A stretch of 64,000 nucleotides of DNA from Patescibacteria group bacterium (GCA_041653535.1 JBAZFH010000002.1:257235-321234); one strand, 5' to 3'; positions 8,211 to 30,040 are shown, numbered from the stretch's first letter. The notes: generated by a model not told the origin, from the letters alone. Translations and numbers: made by a program.

Positions 8211-8228
8211 GCAGGCAATGGCAGGCGG

Positions 8229-12053: not shown

Positions 12054-13109
12054 TTAAAACCGTAACGCGGAAGTTTCCGCGGCGGTTAAAAATTGACGTA
12101 GACCGTCAATGTCTCGGACACCGTGATTGTCGGATGAAACGCCGATGACCAAATGTCGTACTCCGTTGACCCACACTTCGGTTGGGTCGAAAAACGTGTC
12201 GATTAAGTTCGGTATGGCGGCGACAAAGTTAATCGGGTCGTATAGGTTGAAATTTTGGACATACGACCAGATGTCATCGCCGTCATTAATTGCGGGATCA
12301 ACGTCGCCGCAGAAGACTTTAACAAACCATTGGCGGTTTCGGTCGACCGGCAGCGTACCGCGAATTTTTGATTCGGGAGCGGAACAAGCCGCTTGCCATA
12401 GTTTTTGCAGCGCGGGCTTTTGCCGACCTTTTAAACAATCGCCGATAGGATTGCCCGTATTTTCCATATCGTCATAGACAGTAAGGGGAAATTGGCAGGC
12501 ATACGCTGCGTCTCGAGTGGTAATAATCATCGGAATTTTTAATTCTTGCAGTCGCCAGTACAAAAAAACAGCTGATTCGCGGTCGAATTCGTTGTTGTTG
12601 GCGTTATTGGGTGTCATCATGCCGCGAATGTCAAGTTTGATTTTTTTATTTTCGGTTTCGACGCCGCCCATAATAGCAACCTGGCGGATTTTTTGTGTAA
12701 ATAAAAATGGTTCTCGGTCTAACAATTCGGCCGCATCGGTCATACCTGATTGTAGCACCAAAATTACGTTTCGATCGCTGCTTTTTAGCAGAGTGGTTTT
12801 TAGGAGATCAAAACCGTTTGGCAACACCTCGCTTAAATCGGCAAGATAGGAAATTCGTGTTTCGTAAGGGTGGGTTTTTCCCTCAAAGACTGGCGTGCCA
12901 ACAGCAACAGGAACGCTGTCCAGGTCGAGCTGTTTGAGCATACCTTTGGCTATGCGAGCGCGTAAATGCGCCGGCGATAGATTGGCGACGACCGCTTTTA
13001 AGTTGATTATGCCTTGACGGGCGAGTCGGGCGGCGACAAGTAACGTGTGTTCATCGTCGAGGTCTTTACCAAAGTCGCCGATGATAACCAAGTTTGGTCT
13101 AGCAGTCAT
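12054..13109 (-). CDS. inosine-uridine-preferring nucleoside hydrolase (IU-NH) family protein
   Basis: N-terminal aspartate cluster IIGDFGKDLDDEHTLL resembles the IUNH DXDXXXDD motif. Length 351 aa. Confidence 0.55.
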   Translation of the reverse strand: MTARPNLVIIGDFGKDLDDEHTLLVAARLARQGIINLKAVVANLSPAHLRARIAKGMLKQLDLDSVPVAVGTPVFEGKTHPYETRISYLADLSEVLPNGFDLLKTTLLKSSDRNVILVLQSGMTDAAELLDREPFLFTQKIRQVAIMGGVETENKKIKLDIRGMMTPNNANNNEFDRESAVFLYWRLQELKIPMIITTRDAAYACQFPLTVYDDMENTGNPIGDCLKGRQKPALQKLWQAACSAPESKIRGTLPVDRNRQWFVKVFCGDVDPAINDGDDIWSYVQNFNLYDPINFVAAIPNLIDTFFDPTEVWVNGVRHLVIGVSSDNHGVRDIDGLRQFLTAAETSALRF

Positions 13110-13121
13110 TTTACCTTCCCC

Positions 13122-13850
13122 TTATTTGTAACCTAGCTGGTGATACAACGCCAAGGCAATGAAGGATTTTCCGTCTTGAATGACGGAAGATAAGAGTCTC
13201 AGTTGCAATATCTGAAGGGTGATTTTTTCTCCTTCATTTGCAACACCGGTGATTTTGTTTTGCAGTTCTTGCATTTTTTTTCGGGTCATGACCAGTTTGA
13301 TCATGTAAAATTTTGCTTTTTCGTCGAGCATACCAGGGCTGAAATAAATCCCGTTGGCGCTCGCCGGAAGATTCTCGGTCATGTCGATTAATTCTTTTTG
13401 TCCGACAACCAAACCAAGTTCCTCGTATAATTCACGAGCTGCCGCGCCGGAAAAAGTACCGTTGTCGATCATGCCAGCGGGTAGCTCAGGCAATGCGATT
13501 TTGCCGGTAGCGATACGCGGTTGGCGAACCAAGACAGTAAAAATTTCGCCGTCCACATCAATAATCGGCAGCATGACAACGGTGTTGCCACGCAGTTCAA
13601 CGACCGCCGGATAGAGCAGGTTGGCACAGGTAACCTTCATCCGAATAAACAAGACGTTTTTCGCGGTCGCTTCTCCGCGAAAATCAACAGCTTGGATAAA
13701 GATGTGGGAAATTTTGAATTTCCGGCTCAGGCTATTTTTCCAGTTTTTGAAGATTCTGGAATTAATTGCCATTGTGGCTTCCGTAAAGTTCACGGCGACA
13801 GAATAAGATATTTCTACATCTTGGCGGTTGATTTTTACGATGCCTTGCAT
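13122..13850 (-). CDS. NUDIX hydrolase (ADP-ribose pyrophosphatase-like)
   Basis: Nudix box GTFSGAAARELYEELGL (Gx5Ex7REUxEExGU). Confidence 0.7.
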   Translation of the reverse strand: MQGIVKINRQDVEISYSVAVNFTEATMAINSRIFKNWKNSLSRKFKISHIFIQAVDFRGEATAKNVLFIRMKVTCANLLYPAVVELRGNTVVMLPIIDVDGEIFTVLVRQPRIATGKIALPELPAGMIDNGTFSGAAARELYEELGLVVGQKELIDMTENLPASANGIYFSPGMLDEKAKFYMIKLVMTRKKMQELQNKITGVANEGEKITLQILQLRLLSSVIQDGKSFIALALYHQLGYK

Positions 13851-14186: not shown

Positions 14187-15947
14187 ATGAAGGATAATAC
14201 TAAAAAAACAATATCGATTTATTGGCATAACCTTATGCAGTACAAAGGTTATGTTTTTGTTATGCTTTTTTCAGTGCTGGGTGCGTCTATAATAAACGTG
14301 ATTATCCCACTTTTTTTCAAAGATTTTTTTGATATTTTATCCAGTGGGCAAGAGCAGTCGGCGATAATCGATGGACTGATAAAGGTTTTAATACTGATTG
14401 GTATTTGGAGTTTAGTTCAATGGGGATTCTGGCGCATTGCTACTTTTACCGCCAGTTACTTTTATTCGAAGGTGATGATGAACATGACCAACTACTGTTT
14501 CGCTTATTTGCATAAACATTCCTTTTCTTTTTTTAACAACAATTTTGTTGGTTCTTTAACTAAAAAAGTAAAATGGTTTGTTAACGCTTTTGAAGATATT
14601 CTTGACCGTATCACTTGGAGCTTTCTGCCGTTGGTAGTAAATATCGTGGTTATTATATTCGTTTTGTACCGTCGTAGCTGGGCGCTCGCCGCCGGCATGG
14701 GTGTTTGGATAGTTTTGTTTATAATAGTTAATGGTTTTTTTACCAAATATAAACTCAAATACGATATCCAGCGTAGCGCTGCCGAGACCGAATCAACGGC
14801 AATATTAGCTGATACTATCACTAATCATAACAACGTTAAGCTTTTTAACGGTTATCAGCGAGAGATAGATAATTATAGCGGGGTTAATGAAAAATTAAGA
14901 AAATTGCGTCGTTGGACCTGGGATTTCGATAATTTTTTTGACGCGGTTCAAGGTTTGCTGATGACTGTTTTGGAAGTAGGAATATTTTATCTGGCAATTC
15001 GGCTATGGCAAAAGGGAGTTTTGACAGTAGGTGATTTTGTCTTGATTCAATCTTACGTTCTCAATATTTTTCAGCGCGTTTGGGATTTTGGTCGAATAAT
15101 CCGCGGTCTATATACGCGCCTTGCTGACGCTGAAGAAATGACAATAGTATTACAAACTCCGCACGAGGTGAGAGATTACCGCTACGCTAAGGACCTGAAA
15201 GTTCGTCAAGGTAAAATAGAATTTAAAAAAGTTGATTTTTGTTATCAAAAAACCAGAAAGGTTTTAGCTCAACTGAGCTTGATAATAAAACCGCACGAAA
15301 GGCTGGCTTTGATTGGTCCTTCGGGCGCCGGTAAAACCACGGTGGTCAAATTGTTGTTACGAATGCATGATTTGACCGGCGGAAAAATTTTGATTGATGG
15401 TCAGGATATTTCCAAGGTAAAACAAGAAAGCTTGTGGCGGGCAATCAGTTTGGTGCCGCAGGATCCAATACTTTTTCACCGGTCGCTGAGAGATAATATC
15501 GCTTACGGTAAACCAGACGCGACCGATCAGGAGGTGGTAGAAGCGGCAAAAGCAGCTCACTGTCATGAGTTTATTACTTCTTTTCCTGAAGGCTATGATA
15601 CTTTCGTCGGTGAGCGAGGAGTGAAGCTGTCCGGCGGTGAACGTCAGCGTGTAGCGATTGCTCGGGCAATACTGCGCAATGCGCCGATACTCGTTTTAGA
15701 CGAAGCAACGTCAAGTCTGGACAGCGAATCGGAAATACTGATTCAAGACGCTTTGGACAAATTAATGAAAAATAAAACCGTAATCGTAATCGCGCATCGA
15801 CTTTCGACGATACGAAAAGTTGATCGGATAGTGGTGATTGATGAAAAGGGAATAGTAGAAGAGGGTAGTCACGAACAACTGAGTAAAAAGCCAGATGGTC
15901 TGTATCACAAGTTATGGCAGCTGCAGGCCGGTGGGTTTATTGAATAA
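14187..15947 (+). CDS. ABC exporter, fused permease/ATPase (MsbA-like)
   Basis: Six predicted TM segments, then Walker A GPSGAGKTT, signature LSGGERQRVAIARA and Walker B ILVLDEATS. Confidence 0.85.
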   Translation: MKDNTKKTISIYWHNLMQYKGYVFVMLFSVLGASIINVIIPLFFKDFFDILSSGQEQSAIIDGLIKVLILIGIWSLVQWGFWRIATFTASYFYSKVMMNMTNYCFAYLHKHSFSFFNNNFVGSLTKKVKWFVNAFEDILDRITWSFLPLVVNIVVIIFVLYRRSWALAAGMGVWIVLFIIVNGFFTKYKLKYDIQRSAAETESTAILADTITNHNNVKLFNGYQREIDNYSGVNEKLRKLRRWTWDFDNFFDAVQGLLMTVLEVGIFYLAIRLWQKGVLTVGDFVLIQSYVLNIFQRVWDFGRIIRGLYTRLADAEEMTIVLQTPHEVRDYRYAKDLKVRQGKIEFKKVDFCYQKTRKVLAQLSLIIKPHERLALIGPSGAGKTTVVKLLLRMHDLTGGKILIDGQDISKVKQESLWRAISLVPQDPILFHRSLRDNIAYGKPDATDQEVVEAAKAAHCHEFITSFPEGYDTFVGERGVKLSGGERQRVAIARAILRNAPILVLDEATSSLDSESEILIQDALDKLMKNKTVIVIAHRLSTIRKVDRIVVIDEKGIVEEGSHEQLSKKPDGLYHKLWQLQAGGFIE

Positions 15948-16138
15948 AATTTTGTATAAAAAACCAACTCTTCTTAGTGTTGGTTTTTTTTGTTTATTCT
16001 GCTAAAACAAAAAGAGGTGATACTTCGTCGGAGCGAGAATTGACAATTTTTGTCTGTCCGGAGTAAAATAAAGGCGTTATTTATCAAGTAAATAACAGGC
16101 TAGTTTTTTTAAGAACAATAAACTAAGGAGGGGAGTTT

Positions 16139-17176
16139 ATGCTTTATCTACCTCACCCAGCAATGGTTTTGACCACAACCGGTTCGGACGTTTTGGCACA
16201 AGCCATTGCCGAAGAACTTAAACGACGACTGCCAACTGATTTACAGGCTGATCCTATTTTTGTTTCACCACAAGTGGTTCGGTTCTCTAATGACAATATT
16301 CAAGTGCAAGTGCCGAACGTTCGTGGTCATGTGGCAGTGATCGTACATACTCAAGTGCCGCCGGTTAATGATCATTTGGTGGAATTGTTTGAATTGATTG
16401 CCGCAGCGCGTGACGCTCGCGCTTACGACATCATGGTGGTTTTTCCGTACATGCCGTATGCTCGGTCGGATCGCAAAAATAAACCGCGAATTTCGACTAT
16501 GGGTGTGGTTTTGCCGCAGCTCATCGAAAACTTGGGAGTCAAGCGCGTTTTATTGCTTGATCCTCACGATACGCATATCAAGCACTATTTTCGACCGGGC
16601 GCAGATGAAATATCGGCGGTTTATCTGCTGATAGATTATTTGCAAAATAATTTTTTCACCACCACGCCCAGGGAAGAATGCACGTTGGTTTTTTCCGACG
16701 AAGGTTCGTCGAAACGTTTTGGTCATGTGTCGGGAATGTTGAAAATTCCCACCGCTCACATCGATAAAACTCGTTTGGATGATACCGAGCGACCTAAGGC
16801 TGAAATGATGATTGGTGACGTGCGCGGTCGGACGGCCATTATCATCGATGACGAAATTTTGACCGGTCGGACGGTCGAAGAAGACGTGGCGATTATTAAA
16901 GCAGCCGGTGCTGCCAAGGTGATCATGATTGCTATTCACGCACCGATGGATGATATCAAGACTTCAGCGACGGAAGTGATTAATCGTCTGGAGCGTTCGG
17001 CAGTGGATCAGTTTATTGTTACTGATTCGATTCCGATAGCCCATAAACTTGAACTAAGTAGTAAAATCAAAGTGCTGTCGGTCGCCGGTCTGCTCGCTGA
17101 AGCGATTAACCGTGAGGTGACCGATCAGTCACTGACCGAACTACATCAACTGGAAAACGCCGGTCTTTATCGTTAA
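16139..17176 (+). CDS. prs: ribose-phosphate pyrophosphokinase (PRPP synthetase)
   Basis: VVFPYMPYARSDRK and PRPP-binding loop IIIDDEILTGRT. RBS GGAGGGGAG. Confidence 0.85.
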   Translation: MLYLPHPAMVLTTTGSDVLAQAIAEELKRRLPTDLQADPIFVSPQVVRFSNDNIQVQVPNVRGHVAVIVHTQVPPVNDHLVELFELIAAARDARAYDIMVVFPYMPYARSDRKNKPRISTMGVVLPQLIENLGVKRVLLLDPHDTHIKHYFRPGADEISAVYLLIDYLQNNFFTTTPREECTLVFSDEGSSKRFGHVSGMLKIPTAHIDKTRLDDTERPKAEMMIGDVRGRTAIIIDDEILTGRTVEEDVAIIKAAGAAKVIMIAIHAPMDDIKTSATEVINRLERSAVDQFIVTDSIPIAHKLELSSKIKVLSVAGLLAEAINREVTDQSLTELHQLENAGLYR

Positions 17177-17186
17177 AAGTTACGAC

Positions 17187-17903: not shown

Positions 17904-17950
17904 TAACCAGATAAACCACCCCGCTGCATAGCGGGGCGGTAGTTCATTTA
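17904..17950. repeat. REP-like GC hairpin repeat, joined form (ttaaccagataaaccacc + CCGCTgcatAGCGGGGCGgtagttcattta), plus a second hairpin at 17958-17985
   Basis: Left part equals 8322-8340 and right part equals 8712-8747. Sits between convergent genes. Confidence 0.6.
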
Positions 17951-17991
17951 ATAACAAAAAAAGCCCCGTCGGGTGACGGGGCGGTGGTTTG

Positions 17992-18550
17992 TTACTTGGG
18001 TTTTTTCTGCGTTTTTCCCTTGGGATTTTTGCTGCGCGCAGCAGCAACCAGCTGTTGCAGGGTCATGCCGCTGCTGATGATGTCGACGAGCTCTTCCAGA
18101 AGATCCGGTTTTTCTCGCAGTGTCGCCTTGGTTCTGGCTCGGACGTTGTCGTCGCCTTCGATCGGGACCTGGCGAATACGCGGTTTGGTCGCTTTACCTT
18201 CTTCGGCTGTTTTTTTCCAGAGCGTGATTGATAAAATTTTCAGCTCCGCCAAGGATTTTTTCGGCCAAATTGATCGCTCTGTCACCACGGTCTTTCAGCG
18301 TGTTGCCGGTCTTTTTGGCAAGGTTGAAAGTCTTTATGACTTTTTCGAACAGGGGAGAGTCTTCTTCGGTGAACTCGGCCGGGACGTGAATGAACTTTTC
18401 TTTGCCGCTGTTTTCAACGGTGAAATTAATTCCAGTCTCGGTAAAAATTTGGACGAATTTAGTGAACTGGGTGATGTCGTTGAAGGCAAAGACAATCGTC
18501 AGTTTTCCATTTTCGTCCGGGGATATAAAAACGTTTTTGTTACTTGCCAT
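17992..18550 (-). CDS. hypothetical protein, interrupted by a frameshift at an A7 tract (about 18213-18219 on plus strand = T7)
   Basis: ORFs 18194-18550 and 17992-18288 overlap in different frames. Removing one A in the minus-strand A7 run joins ...NHALEK to TAEEGKATKPRIRQVPIEGDD... into a protein of about 186 aa. Confidence 0.4.
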
Positions 18551-19040
18551 GACCCTTGGCTCCTTTTTGTTGTTTTTGCATCAGGTTGTCAAAAATTTTG
18601 TTGTAGGCTTTCACATAGGTGACCCAGACTGTGTTTGCGGAGGCGTAGGTGCCTTCCGCATTTTTTAGACCTGTCCAATTTTGCAGCCCGTAATATTTTT
18701 GTTTTTGTTGCCAAAATTTTTCCAATTTTTCGGTGGTCATATCTTTTCTTTTGGCAATGTTCAAAATTTCATATGGATCGGTCAGGTTTTTTATCCTTCT
18801 CACTTCATTTTTTACCCAAAGGATTAACCGCGGATCAACGGCGGTCCGTGGTTCGGGCAATGTTTTACCGGTAAGAAGGGTAAATATCCGTCTGCCGGCA
18901 CGGCGAATGTCATAAGGGAGTAATAAGTCGGGGATGTCGGTTCTTTTGATCCCATAGTCTTCGTCGCCGGTGGTGATCAGCATGATGTCGCGGTAAAGAT
19001 TGTCGAGACGATTAACAACGAGATTTACCTTTTTAGGCAT
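18540..19040 (-). CDS. hypothetical protein (start MPKKVNLVV, RBS GGAGGT)
   Basis: ATG (complement of 19038-19040) is preceded by GGAGGTAAT. The ORF track's longer N-terminus lacks an RBS. Confidence 0.5.
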   Translation of the reverse strand: MPKKVNLVVNRLDNLYRDIMLITTGDEDYGIKRTDIPDLLLPYDIRRAGRRIFTLLTGKTLPEPRTAVDPRLILWVKNEVRRIKNLTDPYEILNIAKRKDMTTEKLEKFWQQKQKYYGLQNWTGLKNAEGTYASANTVWVTYVKAYNKIFDNLMQKQQKGAKGHGK

Positions 19041-19214
19041 TATTACCTCCTTACAGTGGGGGATTGATTTGTATGTCAACGAACTTGGAATTGGTCTTTA
19101 AAGTTATCAAAATGGGGGTTTAATGTCAATTGAGGGAATTAGGGGCTGGGAACTAGGAACTGGGAACTGGGGGTTGGGGATGGGTGTGGATAAGACGGTT
19201 ATTGACGTTTTTAG

Positions 19215-19248
19215 TTAGTGTGTTAGTATGTGTATAGAATACACTAAG
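19215..19248. promoter_or_regulatory. palindromic operator candidate TTAGTGTgttagtatGTGTATagaATACACTAAG immediately upstream of nrtR
   Basis: Nested inverted repeats (GTGTAT-N3-ATACAC inside TTAGTGT...ACACTAA), ending 7 nt before the nrtR ATG. Related to the site before pnuC. Confidence 0.5.
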
Positions 19249-19255
19249 ATAAAAT

Positions 19256-19933
19256 ATGGTCAAGAAATTAACCAAAAAATACAAATTTGCCACTATTGCT
19301 ACCGATGTGGTTATTTTTACCATCAAAGACGAAAAGCCGCAGGTACTACTGATTAAGATGAAGAAAAAACCTTTTGCTGACTCGTGGGCAGTACCGGGCG
19401 GGTTAGTACATGGTGATGAATCGGTTGACCGAGCGGCACGCCGTCATCTTTTTTCTAAAACCGGTCTCAAAGACGTTTATCTCGAACAGCTTTATACTTT
19501 TGGTAGTGTTGATCGCGATCCTTTTGGTCGGGTAGTGTCGGTTGCTTATTTTGCCCTGATTCCGAATGCCGACTTGAAACTAAAAACCACCAGTGAATAT
19601 GCCGGAGTGCAATGGTGTCCGGTAGATAAATTGCCAAAACTTGCCTATGACCACAAAGAGGTGGTGAGTAAAGCGGTAGAAAGACTGCAGGCTAAACTTG
19701 GTTATACCAATATTGTTTTTGGGCTGCTACCGCCAGAGTTTACTTTGTCGGAGCTACAAAAGACTTACGAAATAATACTCGGTAAGAAATTAGATAAAAG
19801 AAACTTTCGCAAAAAATTGTTTAGTCTGAAACTGGTGCAAAGTACCGGTGGTCGCAAAGCGGGGGATGCTAATAGACCGGCTGAGCTTTATCGTTTTGCC
19901 AGCAAACACCCGCAGCTAATCGAGATCCTTTAA
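19256..19933 (+). CDS. nrtR: Nudix-related transcriptional regulator NrtR-like (degenerate Nudix domain plus C-terminal winged-helix region)
   Basis: Nudix-like segment GGLVHGDESVDRAARRHLFSKTGL. Length about 225 aa. It heads a pnuC-nadR operon, the classic NrtR context. Confidence 0.55.
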   Translation: MVKKLTKKYKFATIATDVVIFTIKDEKPQVLLIKMKKKPFADSWAVPGGLVHGDESVDRAARRHLFSKTGLKDVYLEQLYTFGSVDRDPFGRVVSVAYFALIPNADLKLKTTSEYAGVQWCPVDKLPKLAYDHKEVVSKAVERLQAKLGYTNIVFGLLPPEFTLSELQKTYEIILGKKLDKRNFRKKLFSLKLVQSTGGRKAGDANRPAELYRFASKHPQLIEIL

Positions 19934-19958
19934 TTCCTTTTTATTTTTTATCCAGAGT

Positions 19959-19977
19959 TAGTGTAATAAATACACTA
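19959..19977. promoter_or_regulatory. palindrome TAGTGTA-ataaa-TACACTA upstream of pnuC (candidate NrtR box)
   Basis: Perfect 7-bp inverted repeat with a 5-nt spacer. Shares GTGTA...TACAC half-sites with the nrtR-upstream site. Confidence 0.5.
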
Positions 19978-20016
19978 TAAAGATATAAATAATCTAATAA
20001 ATAAAGAAAAAAGCAT

Positions 20017-21824: not shown

Positions 21825-22622
21825 ATGGATGTTTTGTCTCGAAACAATGGGGTAACGACGATAACTTCGGATAGGGGTTTTACCAAGTCGTTTGCTCCGG
21901 GTCGGGTGTTTTTGCCCGATGAGTATCCGGAAGTGCTGCAGAAGTTTCTGCAGGGTCCAAACGTCGTGGTCATCGGCTTGACCGGCTATTCGTCGATCAA
22001 GTCCGAGCATTGTGCTCGTTGGGGGATTAAGCCCGGCGCTTATGAGTATGCGGTTCATAGCATGCTTACCAATTTAGTGAATGAACTGCGTACCGCCTAT
22101 CCCGGCATCGATATTCGCTTTGTCCACGGCGCTTCGGATATGGGCGTGGACAAGGAAGTTATTGCAGTCGGTGAAGAGCTTGGTGTCCCGCAACTCGGAT
22201 TTTCTTGTCCGGAATTTCTGTCATACGTCGACAACGAAAATCATGACTTTCCGATCTACGTCGGCGCCGATCAAGCGGACTACTCGGACAAGTTCATCCA
22301 GGCACTCGATATTCTAGTTGCGGCCAATGGTCGTAAGCAGGCGTTCATCCACGATATGTCGGCGGCGCTTAGCCACGCTAAATACATCGTGCCGATCAAT
22401 ATCGTGCAGGCGATTTCCAGTACTGGTGGTCCGGCAGCCATCAACGAAGACGGTACGATCGAAGACGCAACCGAGCTGTTTTATCAGCGGGTTGTCTATT
22501 TAGCTATCCAGTTTGGCATCGCCGGACAGGATGTCTGGGCTGAGCTCAACCAGAAACTTACCCAGGCGATCAAGGCAATCACTCGTAAGATTTTGCCGGC
22601 AAACGCTGCTTTTCCTATTTAA
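21825..22622 (+). CDS. hypothetical Rossmann-fold protein, SLOG/DprA/LOG-like (nucleotide-binding)
   Basis: VVVIGLTGYSS...FVHGASDMGVD...LGFSCPEF resembles the DprA/SLOG glycine-rich loops (compare DprA in this window: LAVVGTRR...SGLARGIDSTAH...LGTGLD). Embedded in the NAD island. Confidence 0.3.
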   Translation: MDVLSRNNGVTTITSDRGFTKSFAPGRVFLPDEYPEVLQKFLQGPNVVVIGLTGYSSIKSEHCARWGIKPGAYEYAVHSMLTNLVNELRTAYPGIDIRFVHGASDMGVDKEVIAVGEELGVPQLGFSCPEFLSYVDNENHDFPIYVGADQADYSDKFIQALDILVAANGRKQAFIHDMSAALSHAKYIVPINIVQAISSTGGPAAINEDGTIEDATELFYQRVVYLAIQFGIAGQDVWAELNQKLTQAIKAITRKILPANAAFPI

Positions 22623-22661
22623 CCGTTGATGATAGTCACACGAAAGGAAAGGAGATTTCCG

Positions 22662-23411
22662 ATGAAAAATGTTACTATTGGTCCGCATGACGCGGTCATT
22701 GCCGTCGATTTGTTTCAGAAGGCTTTTCGCTTCGGTGGCGGATTGCCGATAGTGGGCGGTGATGGTTTGGTTATTCCGGCGATTAACTTTATTTCCCTGC
22801 CGTGGGGATATGTTGTTGCCAGTATTGACCAGCATCAGCTGGGAAATATTTCTTTCGCCAGCTCGTACCGAAACGTGCCGGTACCGAAAATCGGTTATCC
22901 GGAAATAACCCTGGAGATGGTACGGAAAAACTGGGCGGATTATTACGTCGGTCCGGCTGCCAAGTTTACCGCGAAGCAGTTGGTTGATTATTTGGAAAAC
23001 GTCGTTTCCTGCTCGCAGGTTCTCTGGCCGAACCATGGTACGGTCGAAGCCGGTGACGGTGTTATTAGTCCGCCGTTTATCGAAGTGTCGCTCGACTACA
23101 TTCTGTTCAAGGGAACAGATGTGTTATGTGACAGCTACTCCGCTTTTGTCGACAATCTCGGTCGTCCGACCGGTCTTGCCGATGAATTGCGTCGATGCGG
23201 TATTAAGCGCGTTTTTTTGATTGGACTTGCTTTCGACTATTGCGTCGGTTGGTCAGCGCTCGACGGCGTGAAGGAAAGTTTCGAGGTCTACATTGTTGAA
23301 AATCTGACCAAGTCGGTCGGCTTTCCGGCTAATTCGGTCGAAGCGATGCGCGAGCAGCTTCTCGCGACCGGGGTGAAAATCATCACCACCGCCGACATCT
23401 CGACGATGTAA
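22662..23411 (+). CDS. pncA: nicotinamidase / isochorismatase-family hydrolase
   Basis: Catalytic-Cys context FLIGLAFDYCVGWS (compare PncA GIATDYCV). RBS AAGGAG before the ATG at 22662. Confidence 0.65.
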   Translation: MKNVTIGPHDAVIAVDLFQKAFRFGGGLPIVGGDGLVIPAINFISLPWGYVVASIDQHQLGNISFASSYRNVPVPKIGYPEITLEMVRKNWADYYVGPAAKFTAKQLVDYLENVVSCSQVLWPNHGTVEAGDGVISPPFIEVSLDYILFKGTDVLCDSYSAFVDNLGRPTGLADELRRCGIKRVFLIGLAFDYCVGWSALDGVKESFEVYIVENLTKSVGFPANSVEAMREQLLATGVKIITTADISTM

Positions 23412-23457
23412 AAAAAACAACACGTGCGGAGGGTGCTCTACGGAGTACCTTCCGCCC

Positions 23458-23520
23458 TAGAAAATTTGCACCAAAGAAATTTGGTTCAAGCTTTCTGGTC
23501 ACAACCACACGGCTGCGGCC
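23458..23520 (+). promoter_or_regulatory. conserved about 60-bp promoter/operator module, copy 1; core 24-bp palindrome TTGCACCAAA-GAAA-TTTGGTTCAA at 23466-23489
   Basis: AGAAAATTTGCACCAAAGAAATTTGGTTCAAGCTTTCTGGTCACAAC... Near-identical copies at 24750-24812 and 26380-26440. Each copy follows a GC hairpin and precedes a gene start by about 80 bp. Confidence 0.6.
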
Positions 23521-23600
23521 TAAAATGTTCTTTAAATTTCAGTTACTCATAAATCAACCAACCAACTTTTGTCCAAAAAAGTTCAGAAAGGGGATAGAAA

Positions 23601-24701
23601 ATGGTGAACAGAAGTAGGGAAGATTTTTTGCTTAGCCGTGTTTACGCGGCGCTCGTTGGTCTATGGATCGGCGATGGCATGGGTATGCCGGTGGAAATGA
23701 TGACACCGGAGCAGATCAAAGAGACAGTCGGTCGAGTCACTGGGTTTATTACGCCGGTGCAAAGGCATATCGGAGGCACGGCCTTCCTTCCGGCAGGTCA
23801 CTGGACCGATGACTGGCAGTTGGCGCGCGCTATTTTGCGGTCGCTAGTTGAATCTGGCGGCTACAACATCAATGATATCGTCGGGCAGCATTTGCTCGCC
23901 CTGAAAGAATCGACCATAGGATGGGGCAAGGCGACCAAAAACGAGCTTCTGAATATCCAGCGGTTTTTCGAAACCGGTGGGACCGAAGGTCGTAATCCAG
24001 CCACTTCGCCGCAGTTGATCGCCGGCCAGGGTACTGGCAATGGCGTGGCGATGAAAATCGCTGCGCTCGCGCTGTACCAAGTGTTGAAACAAGGCGGCTT
24101 TTATCGGCTGCCGCTCGTTACCCAAGTGAAAGAAGTGGGTCTACTGACTCACGCTGATCCTCGGGCGAGCGTTGCGGCGTTTGCTGTCGCCGCGGTGATT
24201 GGCATGGTTATGGAAAAGCCTTTTGAGCTTTTTTGGCCTGCCAAAAAATTTCAGCAGCAAAGGTTTTTGCGGCGGCTGATCGCTCTGACCGAATGGGCCG
24301 AGCAAGACGGTGGTTTGAAAAGCGTCAATTACACTGACCAGTTTTTTTCCGAAGCACTTGGTTATCTGGCTAGCAACAATGGATTACTCCTCGAAGGGTC
24401 GGAATATTTGCGCAAAATCGGTACGAACTGTTTCGCCTTGAATTCGGTGCCGTTTGCAATCGGTGTATTCTTGCGTCACCCGACAGACTTTCGCGCTGGA
24501 GTGCTTGAAGCGATCAACGCCGGCGGCGATACCGACACGACCGCGGCCATGGTTGGCGCGATGATCGGAGCCAACGTTGGTTTGGAAGGTATTCCTCTGG
24601 AGTGGCGACACTTTTTGATGGAACACTATAGCGATGACTACGGCGAATTGCTTTCCTTGGGCAGTGCGCTTTTCATGCAGGCCACGGGGAAGGTTGAGTA
24701 A
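23601..24701 (+). CDS. ADP-ribosylglycohydrolase family protein (DraG/ARH-like)
   Basis: N-terminal ALVGLWIGDGMGMPVEMM (the G.xGDAxG.P.E metal-site motif) and C-terminal GGDTDTTAAMVGAM. Confidence 0.7.
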   Translation: MVNRSREDFLLSRVYAALVGLWIGDGMGMPVEMMTPEQIKETVGRVTGFITPVQRHIGGTAFLPAGHWTDDWQLARAILRSLVESGGYNINDIVGQHLLALKESTIGWGKATKNELLNIQRFFETGGTEGRNPATSPQLIAGQGTGNGVAMKIAALALYQVLKQGGFYRLPLVTQVKEVGLLTHADPRASVAAFAVAAVIGMVMEKPFELFWPAKKFQQQRFLRRLIALTEWAEQDGGLKSVNYTDQFFSEALGYLASNNGLLLEGSEYLRKIGTNCFALNSVPFAIGVFLRHPTDFRAGVLEAINAGGDTDTTAAMVGAMIGANVGLEGIPLEWRHFLMEHYSDDYGELLSLGSALFMQATGKVE

Positions 24702-24749
24702 CTAAACAAACACGCGGCGGGCGTCTTTATAAAAAGGGCGTCCGCCGAC

Positions 24750-24812
24750 AGAAAATTTGTACTAAAGAAATTTGGTTCAAGCTTTCTAGTCGTAACCAAG
24801 GTTGTGACTAAA
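24750..24812 (+). promoter_or_regulatory. conserved promoter/operator module, copy 2; palindrome TTGTACTAAA-GAAA-TTTGGTTCAA at 24757-24780
   Basis: CAGAAAATTTGTACTAAAGAAATTTGGTTCAAGCTTTCTAGTCGTAACCAAGGTTGTGACT, with a downstream hairpin AGTCGTAACC/GGTTGTGACT. Confidence 0.6.
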
Positions 24813-24854
24813 ACGAACTTTACAACAAAATTTTTACGATAAAGGAGCAAAAGG

Positions 24855-26333
24855 ATGAAAATCGACAAAAATGACATTGCGGTTTACGGCGGCAGTTTTA
24901 GCCCGCCGGGAAACCACCATGTGAAGGTAGTGGAGGTGCTAATCGAAGCAGGGTTTCGGCGAATCATCGTCGTTCCTTGCGGCTATCGCGATGACAAAAA
25001 AACCCGAACTAACGACATCGAAAAACTGCATCGAGCAGTAATGTCGGATATGGCTTTTGGTCATTTGCCCGGTGTCGAGGTCGACCTGTTTGATCTTGAA
25101 AAAGACGTTTTTACCAGAACGTGGGATTTGGAACGTCGTTACAAAAACCAGGGTCGGGTTTGGCACGTCATCGGCGCTGATATGATCATCGGCGGGCGCG
25201 CTGGTGAGTCGGAAATCCAGCGGGAATGGGAACACGGCCGCGAACTGTGGAACAAGTCCAACTTCGTGGTTTTCACCCGTGATGGCTACAATCTTTTGAA
25301 AGAAGATTTACCGCCGCATAATGTGGTAATGACGGCAGCGGTAGAGACTGCAAAATCCAGTACGGAAATTCGGCGCGCTATCGCCGCTCACGAATCAATC
25401 GCTGATATGACCCCGCCGCTAGTGACGGATTATATCGAAAGATATCGTCTGTACAGTGCTGGGTTAACCGTGCGCAGCGGAGAAATAAATATTCATTCGC
25501 CGCGCCTTTTGATTATTTCTGATCCGGATAATTTGCGGGCGCAAGAGATAGCACGATATTTTTCGCGCTTTGCTTGTCCGCAAAAACCGAATATGATTTT
25601 GGTTGTCGGCGGCGACGGCACGATGCTGCGGGCGGTCAGAGAAAATTGGCGAAAACGTTTGCCGTTTTTTGGTATTAACGCCGGTCATCTGGGATTTTTG
25701 CTCAACCGTATCGAGGCATTGCCGGAAGAGTGGGAAGACGTTTTTGTTTCGCCATTTGTAGTGCATCAGTCGCCGTTGCTTTACGTGGAAACACGAAAGC
25801 ATCTGCATGATTGGAAAGGCGCTTTTGCCGTCAACGATGCCTGGGTGGAGCGGCAGACGCTGCAAGCCGCCTGGATCGAGCTGATTGTTCGTCAGCGCGC
25901 CAACGGTCATGTGACAACCGAAGAGTGGCATCTGGATAAACTGGTCGGTAATGGCGCGCTTGTTTCCACGGCAGCCGGGTCGACCTCTTATGCCCAACCG
26001 ATGGGTGCTCCGGCGATGTTAGTCGGTTCACCGCATTTGGTCTTGGTGGGAGACGATGTAAAATTTCCTGCCAACTGGGAGTATTCGACATTGGACTTGA
26101 ATCAAGAAGTTGAAATGGTCGGTTTGGACGGTAAAAAACGTCCTTTGCGTGGTTCGGTCGACGGTGTGGATTTGGGTCGAGTTCAAGCCATGCGGGTTCG
26201 TACTTCCAACATCGCCGCCGCCGAATTTGTTTTTGTCAAAGGGCAAGACCTGGCAGGAAAATTGGAAGAAATCCAATTTCCCGGAGCGATCAGTTCATCG
26301 GGCTGGCGCAAGAGGCCGACGACAAATTCGTAA
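24855..26333 (+). CDS. fusion protein: N-terminal nicotinate/nicotinamide-mononucleotide adenylyltransferase (NadD/NMNAT-like) plus C-terminal NAD+ kinase (NadK)
   Basis: N-terminal VYGGSFSPPGNHH (cytidylyltransferase (H/T)xGH motif). C-terminal NAD kinase motifs VVGGDGTMLRAV, INAGHLGFL and GSTSYAQPMGAP (GGDGT / NxGxLGFL / DGxxxxTxxGSTAYSxSAGG). Confidence 0.65.
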   Translation: MKIDKNDIAVYGGSFSPPGNHHVKVVEVLIEAGFRRIIVVPCGYRDDKKTRTNDIEKLHRAVMSDMAFGHLPGVEVDLFDLEKDVFTRTWDLERRYKNQGRVWHVIGADMIIGGRAGESEIQREWEHGRELWNKSNFVVFTRDGYNLLKEDLPPHNVVMTAAVETAKSSTEIRRAIAAHESIADMTPPLVTDYIERYRLYSAGLTVRSGEINIHSPRLLIISDPDNLRAQEIARYFSRFACPQKPNMILVVGGDGTMLRAVRENWRKRLPFFGINAGHLGFLLNRIEALPEEWEDVFVSPFVVHQSPLLYVETRKHLHDWKGAFAVNDAWVERQTLQAAWIELIVRQRANGHVTTEEWHLDKLVGNGALVSTAAGSTSYAQPMGAPAMLVGSPHLVLVGDDVKFPANWEYSTLDLNQEVEMVGLDGKKRPLRGSVDGVDLGRVQAMRVRTSNIAAAEFVFVKGQDLAGKLEEIQFPGAISSSGWRKRPTTNS

Positions 26334-26379
26334 AAATCAAACAAGTGGAGGGTGTTACCATAAGGCGCGCCCTCCACTA

Positions 26380-26440
26380 TAGAAAATTTGCACCAAAGAA
26401 ATTTGGTTCAAGCTTTCTGGTCACAACTACGGTTGCGGCC
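26380..26440 (+). promoter_or_regulatory. conserved promoter/operator module, copy 3; palindrome TTGCACCAAA-GAAA-TTTGGTTCAA at 26388-26411
   Basis: Identical to copy 1 over about 45 nt. Preceded by hairpin GTGGAGGGTG...CGCCCTCCAC. Confidence 0.6.
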
Positions 26441-26504
26441 AAAAAAGAACATTACAATAAACCAAAGGAAAAACAGTAATAATTGCGAGACAAGGAGAAA
26501 AAAG

Positions 26505-27761
26505 ATGAGACATCGAGATAAGCCTATTATTCAGTCTCTATTGGATATGGATTTTTACAAATTTACCATGGGTCAGTTCATTTTTCGTTATTATCCTGAC
26601 CTGCAGGTCAGGTTCGCTTTGACCAACCGTACCAAAAGCGTGCGTTTGGCTGACATGATTGACCTGGGACAACTGCGAGAAGAACTGGAACATTTGCGTA
26701 GCTTGCGGTTTACCAAAAGTGAACTGCATTATCTTCGTGGCACCAACGAGTACGGCGATCGAATGTTTGGTGAAGATTATCTCACCTTTTTGTCCGAACT
26801 TCGTATGCCCGAATTTCATTTGGAAAAGCGAAGCGATGGGCAAATTAATCTCTGGTCCGAAGGCGACTGGCCCTCGGTCTCTCCTGGGGAAACCCCCGGT
26901 CTGGCTATCTTGGCCGAACTGTACTGTCGGCATCTGACCAAAGACATGACCCGTTTCGAGCTCGAAGCGGTTCGCGCCAACGGCATCATGCGTTTGCAGG
27001 AAAAACACCGCAAGTTGCGCCAGTATCCGTTTATTAAATATTCGGATTTTGGTCATCGGCGCCGTGCTTACCGGGACTGGCATGATTTCGTTGTTAGTGT
27101 CGAGGCTGAAGAAATGGCTGGACAGTTTCTCGGTACTTCCGATGCTTGGCTGGCCATGAAATACGGTCTTCTTCCTATGGGCACCAATGCTCATGAGTTG
27201 GGAATGGTGATTGCGGCATTTTTGGCTATCACGGAAGGTGACGCCGGTATCCTGCGCGCCAATCGCGAGATCGTCGATAAGTGGTGGCAGATGTATGGTC
27301 AGGGTCTGTCGATTGCCTTGCCCGACACTTTCGGCTCGGATACTTTTTTGCAGACAATGAACGGTCTCGACGCGGTGAAATGGAAGGGTTTCCGTCACGA
27401 CAGCGGTGACCCGATCGAATTCGGCGAAAAGATCATTAATTTTTACGAAGGGTTCGGTGTTGATCCGCGAGAACACATAATCGTCTTTTCCGACGGTCTC
27501 AATGTGGACGAGATTATTCGTCTAGCCCTGCACTTCAAGGACAGGATCAAGGTGTCTTTTGGTTGGGGTACGACTCTGACCAATGACCTGGGTTTCAAAA
27601 ACCTGTCCATTGTCATCAAGGTGGCTTCGGCTAACGGCCAACCGGCGGTGAAACTGTCTGACAATATCGCCAAAGCGGTCAGTCCGTCGCCGGAAGAGAT
27701 TGAACGTTACAAGCGTTTGTTCGGCTACCATGCGCAGTTCGAAGTGGTTCCTACGGTTTAA
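26505..27761 (+). CDS. pncB: nicotinate phosphoribosyltransferase
   Basis: N-terminus IIQSLLDMDFYKFTMGQ plus NAPRTase core. RBS AAGGAGAAAAAAG before the ATG at 26505, which is in frame with the longer ORF-track call. Confidence 0.8.
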   Translation: MRHRDKPIIQSLLDMDFYKFTMGQFIFRYYPDLQVRFALTNRTKSVRLADMIDLGQLREELEHLRSLRFTKSELHYLRGTNEYGDRMFGEDYLTFLSELRMPEFHLEKRSDGQINLWSEGDWPSVSPGETPGLAILAELYCRHLTKDMTRFELEAVRANGIMRLQEKHRKLRQYPFIKYSDFGHRRRAYRDWHDFVVSVEAEEMAGQFLGTSDAWLAMKYGLLPMGTNAHELGMVIAAFLAITEGDAGILRANREIVDKWWQMYGQGLSIALPDTFGSDTFLQTMNGLDAVKWKGFRHDSGDPIEFGEKIINFYEGFGVDPREHIIVFSDGLNVDEIIRLALHFKDRIKVSFGWGTTLTNDLGFKNLSIVIKVASANGQPAVKLSDNIAKAVSPSPEEIERYKRLFGYHAQFEVVPTV

Positions 27762-27988
27762 CAATGTTCCCGGGCATCCCATGTGGTGCCCGGTTCTGAC
27801 CAGGGAAGAGTAAAAATGGCACGCGGCACGAAGCACGTGGCAAAAAAAATGGCACGCGGCGAGCCTACGCAGCCGTGCGCTATTTATTCATCCTGGTCAG
27901 GAGAAAGCAGTACTTTGAAAATTTAAACAAAAAAATCAATTCACGTTTTTTTTCGTTTAAGAAAATACGAAGAAAGGAAGGTGGTTAA

Positions 27989-30040
27989 ATGAAGGCAGAT
28001 CGTTTTCTTGATATCCGTAATCATGGGTTTTTTCGTGTGGCAGCGGTAATTCCGCGGGTGTTTTTGGCTGACCCCAAGGTAAACGGCGAAGAGCACCTGA
28101 AGGTTTTACGGACATTGTACGACGAGGGCGTTATGTATGCTGTTTTTCCGGAGCTTAGCCTGACGGGTTATAGCAACGGAGACCTTTTTCAGCAAAAGAT
28201 TTTGCTGGAAGAGGCTCTGACAGAGCTGAAATTTTTGGTTAGCGAGACTGCCAGTTGGTCGATGATTATTACGGTTGGTATGCCGCTTTTGATCGAAGAT
28301 CAACTTTTTAACGTCGCCGTGACTTTTTGTCGCGGTGAGGTACTGGGTATCGCGCCGAAAAGCTATCTTCCCAACTATCGCGAATTCTATGAAGGACGGT
28401 GGTTTACCAAAGCTGCCGATGCTCGGAAAAAGGAAGTCGAGCTTTTTGGTCGAATGGTTCCTTTTGGTGCTGACGTTCTGATTCGTTCGACGTTAAATCG
28501 GAATTTCATTCTTCACACCGAAATTTGTGAAGATATCTGGGTACCGATTTCTCCCGGCGCTATCGCGGCGATTTCCGGAGCTACCGTACTCGTCAATTTG
28601 TCGGCGTCTAATATTACTATCGGTAAAACGGAATATCGTCGGCAGTTGGCTCTTAATTCGTCGGGTAAAAACGTCGCCGCTCAAATTTACGTCGCTGCCG
28701 GTTTTGGCGAATCGACCAGTGATTTGTCTTGGGATGGCAGCGCATTTGTCGCTGAGCGTGGTACCATGCTCAGCGAATCAAAGCGTTTTCAGATGGAAAG
28801 TCATTATATCATTGCCGATGTCGACGTTGATTCTCTGCAGACGGAAAGAGCGCGGCAAAATTCTTTTCAGGAAAACGCGGCGGTTTATCGGCAGCCGATG
28901 CGTATGGCGGTGGCGGAAGACAAGTCCGTTCCGGACTTCCTTAATACCTATGTCTTTGATGAATTGCGGCGTAATATTGAGCCGCAGCCATTTGTGCCGT
29001 CGGACCCGACTCGTCGTAGCGAACGATGCTACGAAACATTCAATATCCAGGCAGGAGCGTTGGCACAGCGCTTGCTCCAGTTTCCGGTTGAAAGCCGCAA
29101 AATCGTTTTAGGGGTTTCCGGAGGGCTGGATTCGACCCACGCTTTTTTGATCGCGGCTCATACCATGGATATCATGGGTTTGCCGCGCAGCAATATTTTG
29201 GCGGTAACTATGCCGGGGTTTGGGACAACGGGTCGGACGTATCATAATGCCGTTGCCTTGATTAAAGCAATCGGTGCTACGTTCTATGAGATTCCGATCA
29301 AGAATATTTCAACTGTCATGTTTGAAAACATCGGCTATGATCCCTCTTTGGAAGGGGATAAAAAAAGCTTGGTGTTTGAAAACGTGCAGGCCTGGGAACG
29401 GACAATGACACTCTTCTCGGTTTCGGCCAAAGAAGGTGGTATTGTTCTTGGCACTGGTGATCTGTCCGAACTGTTAATCGGCTGGGCGACCTATGGTGGT
29501 GATCACATGTCCCACTACGGCGTCAACGCCGATGTGCCCAAAACCCTGATTCGCTATTTGGTGTCTTGGGCGCGGGACGAGATTTTTGCCAAAGAAGCGC
29601 GGGTTCAGACGGTCCTCAATGACATTTTGGACACTCCGGTTTCGCCTGAATTATTGCCGACTACCAGGGATGGCAATATTGCTCAGAAGACCGAAGACAT
29701 TGTCGGTCCATATGAGTTGATCGACTTTTTCGGATATTGGATCGTTCGTTTTGGTTTTACGCCGTACAAGGTGGCGCGCCTGGCATTGCATGCTTTCGAC
29801 GGCAAATACACTATCGGCGAAATCAAAAATTGGCTCGGCTACTTTGTTGACGATGACGGAAAAAAACATCTCGGTTTTCTCCCGCGGTTTTTCCGCAATC
29901 AGTTCAAGCGCAACTGTTTACCGGACGGACCCAAGGTTGGTCTTACTTCTGTTTCGCCTCGTGGCGACTGGCGTATGCCGTCGGATGCGCGCGTAACTTC
30001 CTGGATGGACAGCTGGGAGGAGATTCCCTATTTATATTAA
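27989..30040 (+). CDS. nadE: glutamine-dependent NAD+ synthetase (nitrilase-like domain plus NAD synthetase domain)
   Basis: N-terminal CN-hydrolase domain (FPELSLTGY, catalytic ICEDIW) and C-terminal PP-loop VLGVSGGLDSTHAF. Confidence 0.85.
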   Translation: MKADRFLDIRNHGFFRVAAVIPRVFLADPKVNGEEHLKVLRTLYDEGVMYAVFPELSLTGYSNGDLFQQKILLEEALTELKFLVSETASWSMIITVGMPLLIEDQLFNVAVTFCRGEVLGIAPKSYLPNYREFYEGRWFTKAADARKKEVELFGRMVPFGADVLIRSTLNRNFILHTEICEDIWVPISPGAIAAISGATVLVNLSASNITIGKTEYRRQLALNSSGKNVAAQIYVAAGFGESTSDLSWDGSAFVAERGTMLSESKRFQMESHYIIADVDVDSLQTERARQNSFQENAAVYRQPMRMAVAEDKSVPDFLNTYVFDELRRNIEPQPFVPSDPTRRSERCYETFNIQAGALAQRLLQFPVESRKIVLGVSGGLDSTHAFLIAAHTMDIMGLPRSNILAVTMPGFGTTGRTYHNAVALIKAIGATFYEIPIKNISTVMFENIGYDPSLEGDKKSLVFENVQAWERTMTLFSVSAKEGGIVLGTGDLSELLIGWATYGGDHMSHYGVNADVPKTLIRYLVSWARDEIFAKEARVQTVLNDILDTPVSPELLPTTRDGNIAQKTEDIVGPYELIDFFGYWIVRFGFTPYKVARLALHAFDGKYTIGEIKNWLGYFVDDDGKKHLGFLPRFFRNQFKRNCLPDGPKVGLTSVSPRGDWRMPSDARVTSWMDSWEEIPYLY

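Follow-up and report, generated by a model that had tools for sequence, protein, structure and literature searches.

A mosaic NAD acquisition-and-recycling locus, probably gained largely by insertion, in a Patescibacteria bacterium

Introduction

Gene clusters for the salvage of nicotinamide adenine dinucleotide (NAD) that are linked to the repressor NrtR were described in 2008, and they comprise pncA-pncB-nadD-nadE, pnuC-nadR, prs and draG (PMC2330246). The operators of NrtR are palindromes of approximately 21 bp with a GT-N7-AC core, located upstream of the targets, and the linkage of nrtR to draG is known in Streptomyces (PMC2330246). Here we describe a locus of this known type, with a textbook set of enzymes and a textbook regulator, in a Patescibacteria group bacterium of the candidate phyla radiation (CPR). 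It occupies positions 12054-30040 of a 64,000-nucleotide stretch of the genome (GCA_041653535.1 JBAZFH010000002.1:257235-321234), which is referred to as the window and from whose first letter all coordinates are counted. We consider it probable that the interval constitutes an NAD acquisition-and-recycling set, partly controlled by NrtR and largely gained by insertion. This reading draws on domain identities, operator motifs, composition, synteny and co-occurrence; the activities of all cluster proteins are predicted from their domains.

The kinship with the NrtR clusters of Rodionov et al. (2008, PMC2330246) is seen in the Nudix and winged-helix architecture of the repressor and in operators of the GT-N7-AC type at its own promoter and at pnuC-nadR. 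Indeed, pncA, pncB, nadD, nadE, pnuC, nadR, prs and the DraG-type ADP-ribosylglycohydrolase (ARH) have all been seen before as members of NrtR regulons. The differences are also of note. All of these genes are found here in a single 18-kb CPR stretch, and NadD is fused to NadK. The locus has three additional members, namely a SLOG-fold protein without a Pfam match, a XopQ-like hydrolase and a 242-aa Nudix protein. Furthermore, most of the genes are devoid of a recognizable NrtR box, and three of them carry a repeated hairpin element instead.

Results

NAD enzymes, transporter and repressor

A first-pass annotation, made by a model from the sequence, had assigned the genes of the interval and had assembled them into nicotinamide-riboside salvage, the Preiss-Handler route, NadK, Prs and the pair of ARH and Nudix. 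Profile and structure searches bore out every one of these gene calls in place, and the reconstructed pathway agrees with all of the profile matches. The Preiss-Handler steps are represented in full. The nicotinate phosphoribosyltransferase PncB (26505-27761, plus strand, initiating at the ATG at 26505) contains the Pfam domains NAPRTase_N (PF17767) and NAPRTase, and scores above cutoff with both TIGR01514 (302 bits versus 270) and NF003704 (402 versus 379). The nicotinamidase PncA (22662-23411, plus strand) is a protein of 249 aa with an insertion of ~45 aa, whose start is the ATG at 22662 and not the TTG at 22626. It matches solved nicotinamidases (PDB 2wt9, E 2e-22, and 3r2j) and PRK11609 (82 bits), and its catalytic cysteine motif, DYCVGW, aligns with those of the solved enzymes. 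NadD and NadE are recognized at the domain level. The NadE protein (27989-30040, plus strand) is a predicted glutamine-dependent NAD synthetase with glutaminase and synthetase domains (Pfam CN_hydrolase and NAD_synthase), 52% identical to the NadE of the NAD cluster at locus L022.

NadD is the partner of NadK in a fusion protein (24855-26333, plus strand) predicted to join nicotinate mononucleotide (NaMN) adenylyltransferase and NAD kinase activities. Pfam CTP_transf_like and NAD_kinase and the NCBIfam models for NadD and NAD kinase all match, and the sequence contains the motifs GGDGT and SSTEIR. Fusions of this kind are common, with 660 homologs at no more than 49% identity, the named ones being from Verrucomicrobiota, Planctomycetota and Patescibacteria. 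The gene stands alone in the Verrucomicrobiota metagenome-assembled genome (MAG) L004 and on the large-genome contig L005, and the neighborhoods of three homologs (L002, L004 and L005) had stand-alone genes and no pointer to a donor. A first scan of genome contigs with the fusion protein as query returned no relatives.

The uptake and salvage of nicotinamide riboside are represented by PnuC (20017-20601, plus strand; Pfam NMN_transporter, 187 bits) and NadR (20582-21649, plus strand). The latter is without a helix-turn-helix domain and combines predicted nicotinamide mononucleotide (NMN) adenylyltransferase and ribosylnicotinamide kinase domains (AAA_28, 126 bits, with CTP_transf_like; TIGR01526, 185 bits). 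Because pnuC overlaps nadR by 20 nt, the two genes are taken as one operon, in which transporter, adenylyltransferase and kinase domains are all assembled. Prs (16139-17176, plus strand) surpasses the cutoff of the ribose-phosphate diphosphokinase family TIGR01251 (215 versus 113 bits), and its top PDB matches are Prs enzymes. These matches suggest a bona fide Prs, which would serve as the source of phosphoribosyl pyrophosphate (PRPP) for PncB. A canonical promoter-like site, TTGACA-18-TAAAAT, lies upstream of the gene at 16040-16069.

Three further proteins are related to the turnover of ADP-ribose or nucleosides. The ARH of the DraG/ARH family (23601-24701, plus strand; Pfam ADP_ribosyl_GH, 185 bits) has homologs in the NAD clusters of L009/L025, L021 and L027. 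The 242-aa Nudix hydrolase (13122-13850, minus strand) has an intact REx2EE box (RELYEELGL), a Pfam NUDIX match of 34 bits and a weak NCBIfam match to NudE, from which it is likely an ADP-ribose or ADP-sugar pyrophosphatase. Its homologs in other NAD clusters are 33% (L009/L025) and 48% (L018) identical. It forms an operon (12054-13850, minus strand) with the gene of a 351-aa protein of the XopQ/HopQ1-like nucleoside-hydrolase fold (12054-13109, minus strand), downstream of a promoter-like site TTGACA-18-TAATAT at 13950-13921. The XopQ-like protein matches NCBIfam NF041355 (E 1.6e-48) and PDB entries 7jlu, 4kl0 and 4p5f (E 5e-32), while its match to Pfam IU_nuc_hydro (23 bits) is below threshold. 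A homolog of 40% identity is found inside the NAD cluster of L008. The homology to XopQ/HopQ1 of Xanthomonas and Pseudomonas is full-length and includes the N-terminal aspartate-rich motif. In contrast to these effectors, the protein has no N-terminal type III secretion region, attains 165 bits, far below the equivalog cutoff of 500, and is the cytoplasmic partner of a Nudix protein in a metabolic cluster.

The repressor NrtR (19256-19933, plus strand) combines an N-terminal Nudix-like domain (Pfam NUDIX, 65 bits) with the C-terminal winged-helix domain of the family (NrtR_WHD, 89 bits). Its score with NCBIfam NF050029 is 175 bits, below the equivalog cutoff of 400, and it is 55-60% identical to the NrtR proteins of the CPR NAD clusters L006, L009, L012 and L022. 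A palindrome search located TAGTGTA-N5-TACACTA exactly twice in the 64 kb. The predicted operator 1 (ATGTGTATAGAATACACTA, 19228-19246) begins at the last bases of the -10 hexamer of the promoter-like site of nrtR (TTGACG-16-TAGTAT, 19202-19229), and the predicted operator 2 (TAGTGTAATAAATACACTA, 19959-19977), a perfect palindrome, lies upstream of pnuC-nadR. Both conform to the GT-N7-AC core, and near-identical boxes are located beside nrtR or NAD genes in L009/L025, L012, L014 and L022.

Four open reading frames (ORFs) inside the interval are not related to NAD. These are an ABC exporter (14187-15947, plus strand; Pfam ABC_membrane and ABC_tran), which is a backbone gene outside the NAD system, a 172-aa lipoprotein-like ORF, and two minus-strand ORFs of no assigned function (18194-19079).

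Composition and insertion

The first-pass annotation had described the NAD genes as visibly GC-richer than their flanks, had taken this, together with their arrangement as single-gene cassettes, to suggest horizontal acquisition as a unit, and had proposed checks of per-gene composition and of related genomes. Whereas the backbone has a GC content of about 0.37-0.41, the zone from ~8 to 34 kb is indeed GC-richer, and it is heterogeneous. The GC content at third codon positions (GC3) is 0.371±0.044 in 33 backbone genes. Against this reference, the six genes from that of the SLOG-fold protein to nadE (21825-30040) have values of 0.53-0.60 (z +3.6 to +5.2; Mann-Whitney p = 3e-7), the XopQ-like and Nudix genes (12054-13850) have 0.50-0.51 (z about +3), and prs has 0.46 (z +2). 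The GC3 of the ABC exporter (0.40), nrtR (0.40) and nadR (0.41) is backbone-like (z +0.6 to +1.0). The enrichment is thus real and uneven, and the region is a compositional mosaic, not one unit.

Two long contigs, L028 and L029, were reached through the closest homologs of RecO (58% and 53% identity). L028, the nearest relative found, has a homogeneous GC content of 0.38, and its backbone proteins are 56-70% identical to those of the window. The left flank is colinear through hyp177, a VirD4-like ATPase, hyp202, adk, map, recO, tRNA-Asn and the ABC exporter, and the right flank through h429 (70%), h420 (62%) and h465 (70%). The ABC exporter is 67% identical and occupies the same position, after recO and tRNA-Asn, in both genomes. 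Between tRNA-Asn and this gene, L028 has two small genes, where the window has a diversity-generating retroelement (DGR) and the XopQ-like/Nudix pair (8.3-14.1 kb). Between the ABC exporter and the homolog of hyp274, L028 has one ORF of 82 aa, where the window has 18 kb (16.0-34.3 kb) that contain prs through nadE, a DUF4349 protein, a 640-aa protein and a ZIP transporter. L029 diverges from the window right after tRNA-Asn. The absence of both segments from the colinear locus of L028 supports gain by insertion. Relative to L028, the interval amounts to two insertions in a tRNA-Asn-linked variable region, split by a backbone gene.

The foreign origin proposed in the first-pass annotation is therefore backed by GC3 and by the comparison to L028, and its acquisition as a single unit is not: the backbone ABC gene interrupts the set, two insertions are seen against L028, and there are at least three compositional strata. 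For the Preiss-Handler, ARH and SLOG block at 21.8-30.0 kb, whose composition is foreign, the most likely origin is horizontal transfer from another, GC-richer and CPR-like donor. In place of NrtR boxes, this block has a repeated hairpin element of its own.

Recurrence in other CPR genomes

The whole parts list recurs, in varied order, in Uhrbacteria, Komeilibacteria, Saccharibacteria-labelled and other CPR MAGs. The order is NrtR-PncA-SLOG-NadDK-PncB-Prs-NadE in the Uhrbacteria loci L006/L016, NrtR-SLOG-PncA-NadDK-PncB-NadE in L022, and SLOG-NrtR-NadD-ARH-PncB-NadE-Nudix in L009/L025. The cluster of L008 adds two nucleoside hydrolases, one of them XopQ-like, and a Nudix protein, and similar clusters are present at L012 and L021. 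Such recurrence makes the module typical of the group and not exceptional, contrary to the first-pass annotation, which had considered its presence in a reduced genome to be notable. A search of the literature on NAD salvage in Patescibacteria yielded nothing specific. In the Uhrbacteria loci L006/L016 and in L009 the enzyme genes are GC-richer than the flanks and nrtR is not, whereas in L012, L014, L021, L022 and L027 the GC content of the cluster equals that of the flanks. Such a pattern would be expected if the module had moved laterally more than once between lineages that differ in GC content.

A repeated intergenic element

The first-pass annotation had credited each gene of the island with its own hairpin and a conserved promoter module. 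Terminator-like hairpins are found 3' of most genes, not of all. The module is also real, yet it is confined to three or four intergenic regions, has no sigma-70 consensus and has compensatory changes in its stems. A 42-nt core, AGAAAATTTGCACCAAAGAAATTTGGTTCAAGCTTTCTGGTC, occurs three times (23459-23500, 24750-24791 and 26381-26422), upstream of the genes for ARH, NadD-NadK and PncB, against a chance expectation of 0. Each core is embedded in a module of ~107 nt on the plus strand (copy 1, 23420-23528; copy 2, 24711-24817; copy 3, 26342-26448) that folds as three hairpins (z -5.3 to -6.3) and, within the 64-kb window, is private to this cluster. The hairpin H1 is rich in GC, and its pairing is kept while the sequence varies among the copies. 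H2, a long imperfect palindrome with a GAAA loop and 1x1 internal loops, hardly varies among the copies, with three substitutions in one of them, including the conversion of a C-G pair to U-G. H3 exhibits changes from G-C to A-U and from A·C to G·U. Double compensatory changes affect 6 of the 34 pairs of the module, as judged from three copies only. No convincing sigma-70 hexamers were found inside the module, other than one weak 9/12 match in one copy, unlike the case of prs, nrtR and the Nudix operon with their canonical promoter-like sites. The compensatory changes in the stems thus argue for an RNA-level or palindromic element, rather than a demonstrated promoter. A sigma-54 promoter was rejected on inspection. 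An integron-cassette interpretation of the hairpins was likewise set aside, as IntI is missing and no R''/R' core sequences were seen on reading of the sequence.

Rfam covariance models gave no relevant match in 19000-30300 at E <= 5 and none at the gathering score in the window; an snRNA match at a lenient threshold is attributed to chance. The only sequence with the core in an exact-match metagenome scan was a fragment of 1,957 bp from this same organism. A covariance model was built from the three copies. It gave weak matches directly upstream of pncB in L021 (15130-15234, 24 bits, E 0.007 over 506 kb), directly upstream of the SLOG gene in L012 (9792-9903, E 0.13), and upstream of the SLOG gene of the window itself (21696-21790, plus strand, 17.7 bits, E 0.21). 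All of these matches are intergenic, on the coding strand and directly upstream of NAD-cluster genes, and the matched regions fold to the same layout of H1, long H2 and H3 with different sequence. The degenerate copy at 21696-21790 folds as a long hairpin followed by a second hairpin. The 3' part of the module, GAACaTTAcAA, recurs upstream of the SLOG gene, next to the native-like nadR. Collectively, the matches are suggestive of a conserved structured cis-element of CPR NAD clusters, which may be a terminator or stabilizer, a processing site, an operator or a ligand-responsive leader. The module resembles repetitive extragenic palindromic (REP) hairpins and bacterial interspersed mosaic elements, as well as the NAD+ riboswitches (nadA and pnuC motifs), in that stable repeated hairpins are located between co-directional genes, 5' of NAD genes. 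It differs from all of these in having only three or four copies, all within this cluster, and in the lack of an Rfam match at E <= 5. The leader of nadE (27762-27905, plus strand) is unlike the three-copy module; it is a long GC-rich hairpin with ATGGCACGCGGC present twice (fold of -67 kcal/mol, z -5.9).

A rare SLOG-fold protein

The gene directly upstream of pncA (21825-22622, plus strand) encodes a protein of 265 aa, SLOG265, which has no sequence match in Pfam, NCBIfam or PDB, nor a match in a PDB profile search. None of the 15 family members has a Pfam match. An AlphaFold2 model was built on 15 homologs (mean predicted local distance difference test of 89.4), and its Foldseek matches are exclusively SLOG-superfamily folds, in line with the SLOG-like call of the first-pass annotation. 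The top matches were the melastatin homology regions (MHR) of TRPM2/4/5/8, which bind ADP-ribose in TRPM channels, LOG, the molybdenum-cofactor carrier protein MCP, PpnN and DprA (E 4e-6 to 1e-3, TM-score 0.35-0.47). A search of viral folds in BFVD gave only generic SLOG/DprA-like and uncharacterized matches. SLOG265 is predicted to have in common with LOG, PpnN and LSDAT (TRPM MHR1/2) the Rossmann-like SLOG fold, and the genomic link to nucleotide and ADP-ribose metabolism holds for it as well. The order of motifs is akin to that of LOG, with V-H-G-A-S-x-x-G-V-D, A-A-N-G-R and P-[VI]-N in the alignment. The catalytic motif of LOG enzymes is PGGxGTxxE. This motif is not present as such in SLOG265, where the corresponding segment reads AANGRxQAF; there is no Pfam Lysine_decarbox match, and no sequence-level match to any Pfam or PDB entry.

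The family is small, with 15 homologs in a word-indexed search and 132 representatives at E <= 0.001 among 1.84 billion proteins. It is found in 17 GTDB species, in MAGs labelled Komeili-, Moranii-, Uhr-, Parcu-, Peri- and Saccharibacteria and in Obscuribacter/Melainabacteria. In CPR and Melainabacteria genomes the family sits beside pncA or pncB. Most of the longer loci have NAD genes within 10 kb of the SLOG homolog, and in five organisms its immediate neighbor is pncA. Because of this adjacency, and because the fold relatives cleave or bind nucleotides and ADP-ribose, our best guess is that SLOG265 supplies nicotinamide from NMN, nicotinamide riboside or another NAD-derived nucleotide, or that it binds ADP-ribose. 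The gene for NMN glycohydrolase was listed as unidentified in Escherichia coli in 2005 (PMC1249556). A more specific proposal is that SLOG265 is this missing N-glycosidase, releasing nicotinamide and, for use by Prs, ribose-5-phosphate from NMN, nicotinamide riboside or a substrate derived from NAD or ADP-ribose, and that the three-hairpin element is an RNA leader responsive to an NAD metabolite. As a combined proposal, we regard this as unlikely.

In two unrelated CPR loci, the SLOG homolog is preceded at a considerable distance by tandem NrtR-type boxes (L007, 1707-1772, and L014, 1204-1269); the two arrays are near-identical and the first box of each pair is identical. Between the boxes and the SLOG gene are co-directional genes, which include a PP2C phosphatase and a protein kinase, in L007, and a nadD-like gene in L014. 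From this arrangement, the SLOG protein may be a member of the NrtR regulon also where it lies apart from NAD genes.

Discussion

The genes of the interval can be arranged in a cycle of import and recycling. NrtR, bound to the two 19-bp palindromes, would repress nrtR and pnuC-nadR. By analogy to characterized NrtR proteins, accumulation of ADP-ribose, a by-product of NAD consumption, would release the repressor. PnuC would then bring in nicotinamide riboside, which NadR would convert to NMN and on to NAD. Nicotinamide liberated by NAD-consuming enzymes would be converted to nicotinate by PncA and, with PRPP from Prs, to NaMN by PncB. The NadD domain would produce nicotinate adenine dinucleotide, which NadE would amidate to NAD, and the fused NadK domain would furnish NADP. 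ARH would free ADP-ribose from modified substrates or from O-acetyl-ADP-ribose. The Nudix protein would split ADP-ribose to AMP and ribose-5-phosphate, and Prs would return the latter to PRPP, consumed by PncB. As for the remaining two members, the XopQ-like hydrolase and the SLOG protein are predicted to act on ribosides or nucleotides derived from NAD, by binding or cleavage, and so to provide the neighboring PncA with nicotinamide.

CPR bacteria are thought to depend on partners for most of their cofactors. A self-contained, regulated module for NAD import and recycling indicates which cofactor steps such cells keep, with the ADP-ribose moiety predicted to be recovered as PRPP. The module appears to move between CPR lineages, and the locus thereby exemplifies the gain of a metabolic island by a streamlined genome. 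Two leads emerge from it. One is the rare SLOG-fold protein, for which the gene neighborhood suggests a role in a step of NAD recycling that is still unassigned. The other is the structured element that recurs between genes of the acquired block, where it takes the place of NrtR boxes.

Several observations weigh against a set that is under NrtR and gained by insertion. The palindrome search found no NrtR box upstream of 10 of the 12 NAD-related genes, with none before the SLOG-pncA, ARH, nadDK, pncB, nadE, prs and Nudix operons, and so the block is at most a candidate member of the regulon. The backbone-like GC3 of nrtR and nadR indicates that these parts may be old or relocated, not newly acquired. 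The GC-normalized tetranucleotide signature of the block (r = 0.66) is ~1.7 sd below that of backbone chunks (0.73±0.04); being only marginally atypical, it favors a related, CPR-like donor over a distant one. There is no integrase or transposase domain in 12-34 kb and no flanking direct repeat at either insertion, and the only trace of mobility is at the left border of the first insertion, where tRNA-Asn is accompanied by partial duplications of itself. L028 is distant (56-70% protein identity) and 20 kb of it were compared, so the NAD genes could lie elsewhere in that genome, and with relatives this remote, loss or relocation in L028 or L029 is possible. Lastly, no homolog closer than ~50% was found for the block proteins that were searched (the fusion and SLOG) or compared with fetched loci, hence no donor can be named.

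An alternative is a native, vertically inherited cluster, in which high GC content reflects gene-specific selection on conserved, well-expressed enzymes in a small genome that drifts toward AT, and from which L028 lost or relocated its genes. Similar clusters exist in many CPR lineages, enzyme genes exceed their flanks in GC content, with nrtR as the exception, also in L006/L016 and L009, the tetranucleotide signature is near that of the backbone, and no mobility genes were found. However, the five clusters without GC contrast to their flanks (L012, L014, L021, L022 and L027) indicate that these genes have no intrinsic GC bias. Selection alone would hardly be expected to shift GC3 at synonymous sites by as much as +0.16 to +0.23. 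The colinear locus of L028 lacks two independent segments, L029 diverges right after tRNA-Asn, and the block possesses a private intergenic repeat that is found nowhere else in the window. We accordingly hold vertical inheritance to be improbable. A chimera of assembly or binning, by which the GC-rich block would belong to another organism, is suggested by the sharp steps in composition at ~21.7 kb and ~30.1 kb, and by independent short contigs (L001 and L010) that span only the interior of the block. Yet the contig resumes a colinear backbone on both sides, the junctions have no repeat able to cause a mis-join, the SLOG gene and the cluster architecture are CPR-typical, the tetranucleotide signature is near that of the backbone, and the 3' part of the module is also found upstream of the SLOG gene, beside the native-like nadR. 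A chimera is thus hardly credible.

A different function altogether would be a conflict system based on NAD and ADP-ribose, composed of ARH, Nudix, SLOG, XopQ-like and Prs proteins, in anti-phage defense or in phage counter-defense of the NARP type. XopQ binds ADP-ribose. In the NCBIfam naming it is an effector of the type III secretion system, and the DGR adjoins the interval. In Thoeris, the SLOG domain of ThsA serves as a sensor of cyclic ADP-ribose signals (PMC11204291), and Prs homologs serve as Adps in the phage pathway NARP1 (bioRxiv 10.1101/2024.02.11.579819). With NARP1, which consists of Adps and Namat, the locus has in common a Prs-family kinase near a phosphoribosyltransferase and a context of ADP-ribose and nicotinamide recycling. 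However, Nampt-type Namat accompanies 97% of Adps proteins (bioRxiv 10.1101/2024.02.11.579819), whereas the transferase here is of the nicotinate-specific PncB type, with NAPRTase_N and a TIGR01514 score above cutoff, and is ~9 kb away from prs. The Prs is canonical, above its family cutoff and with true Prs enzymes as its best PDB matches. PADLOC had no match for the XopQ-like, Nudix, SLOG and ARH proteins or for the ORFs without assignment, and only a weak match of the PRTase domain of Prs to ShosT. There are no phage structural or replication genes, and the neighbors form a complete biosynthetic route under NrtR. A conflict system is therefore very improbable, and metabolic NAD acquisition and recycling remains our preferred interpretation.

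Other features of the window

The left edge of the first insertion is marked by tRNA-Asn (8138-8212), whose 3' half is repeated at 8229-8268 (95% identity) and whose 5' half recurs just upstream (~8093-8125). As the sequence that follows this tRNA differs in the window, L028 and L029, the site looks like a hotspot of integration or variability. The adjoining non-coding region (8270-8990) is unusually GC-rich and dense in hairpins. A GC-rich hairpin, AAACC[GA]CCCCGC followed by GCGGGGCGGT, is repeated at 8320-8350, 8710-8747, 17913-17950 and 17958-17995, the copies at 8710 and 17913 sharing 97% identity across 38 nt. This hairpin is possibly a terminator or REP-like.

The DGR (8989-11978) has a target ORF at 8989-10014 with a GC content of 0.58. 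Its variable repeat (9891-10009) differs from the template repeat (10388-10506) at 23 positions, all of them at adenines of the template. An Avd-like ORF (10562-10900, minus strand) is followed by the reverse transcriptase (10901-11978, YADD motif), which is split by a run of nine G at ~11449, a frameshift or an assembly error. Upstream, a VirD4/TraG-like (DUF87) ATPase at 1091-3676 occupies the same position in L028 and L029, and it is thus part of the backbone and not a marker of a mobile element. The 640-aa ORF (31482-33404), located between the genes for DUF4349 and the ZIP transporter within the same inserted segment as prs through nadE, has no Pfam, PADLOC or PHROG match, and its GC3 of 0.60 is like that of the NAD block. 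Toward the end of the window, at 62189-62301, there is a tandem array of ~16 copies of the 7-nt unit AGCTATC/AGCTACC.

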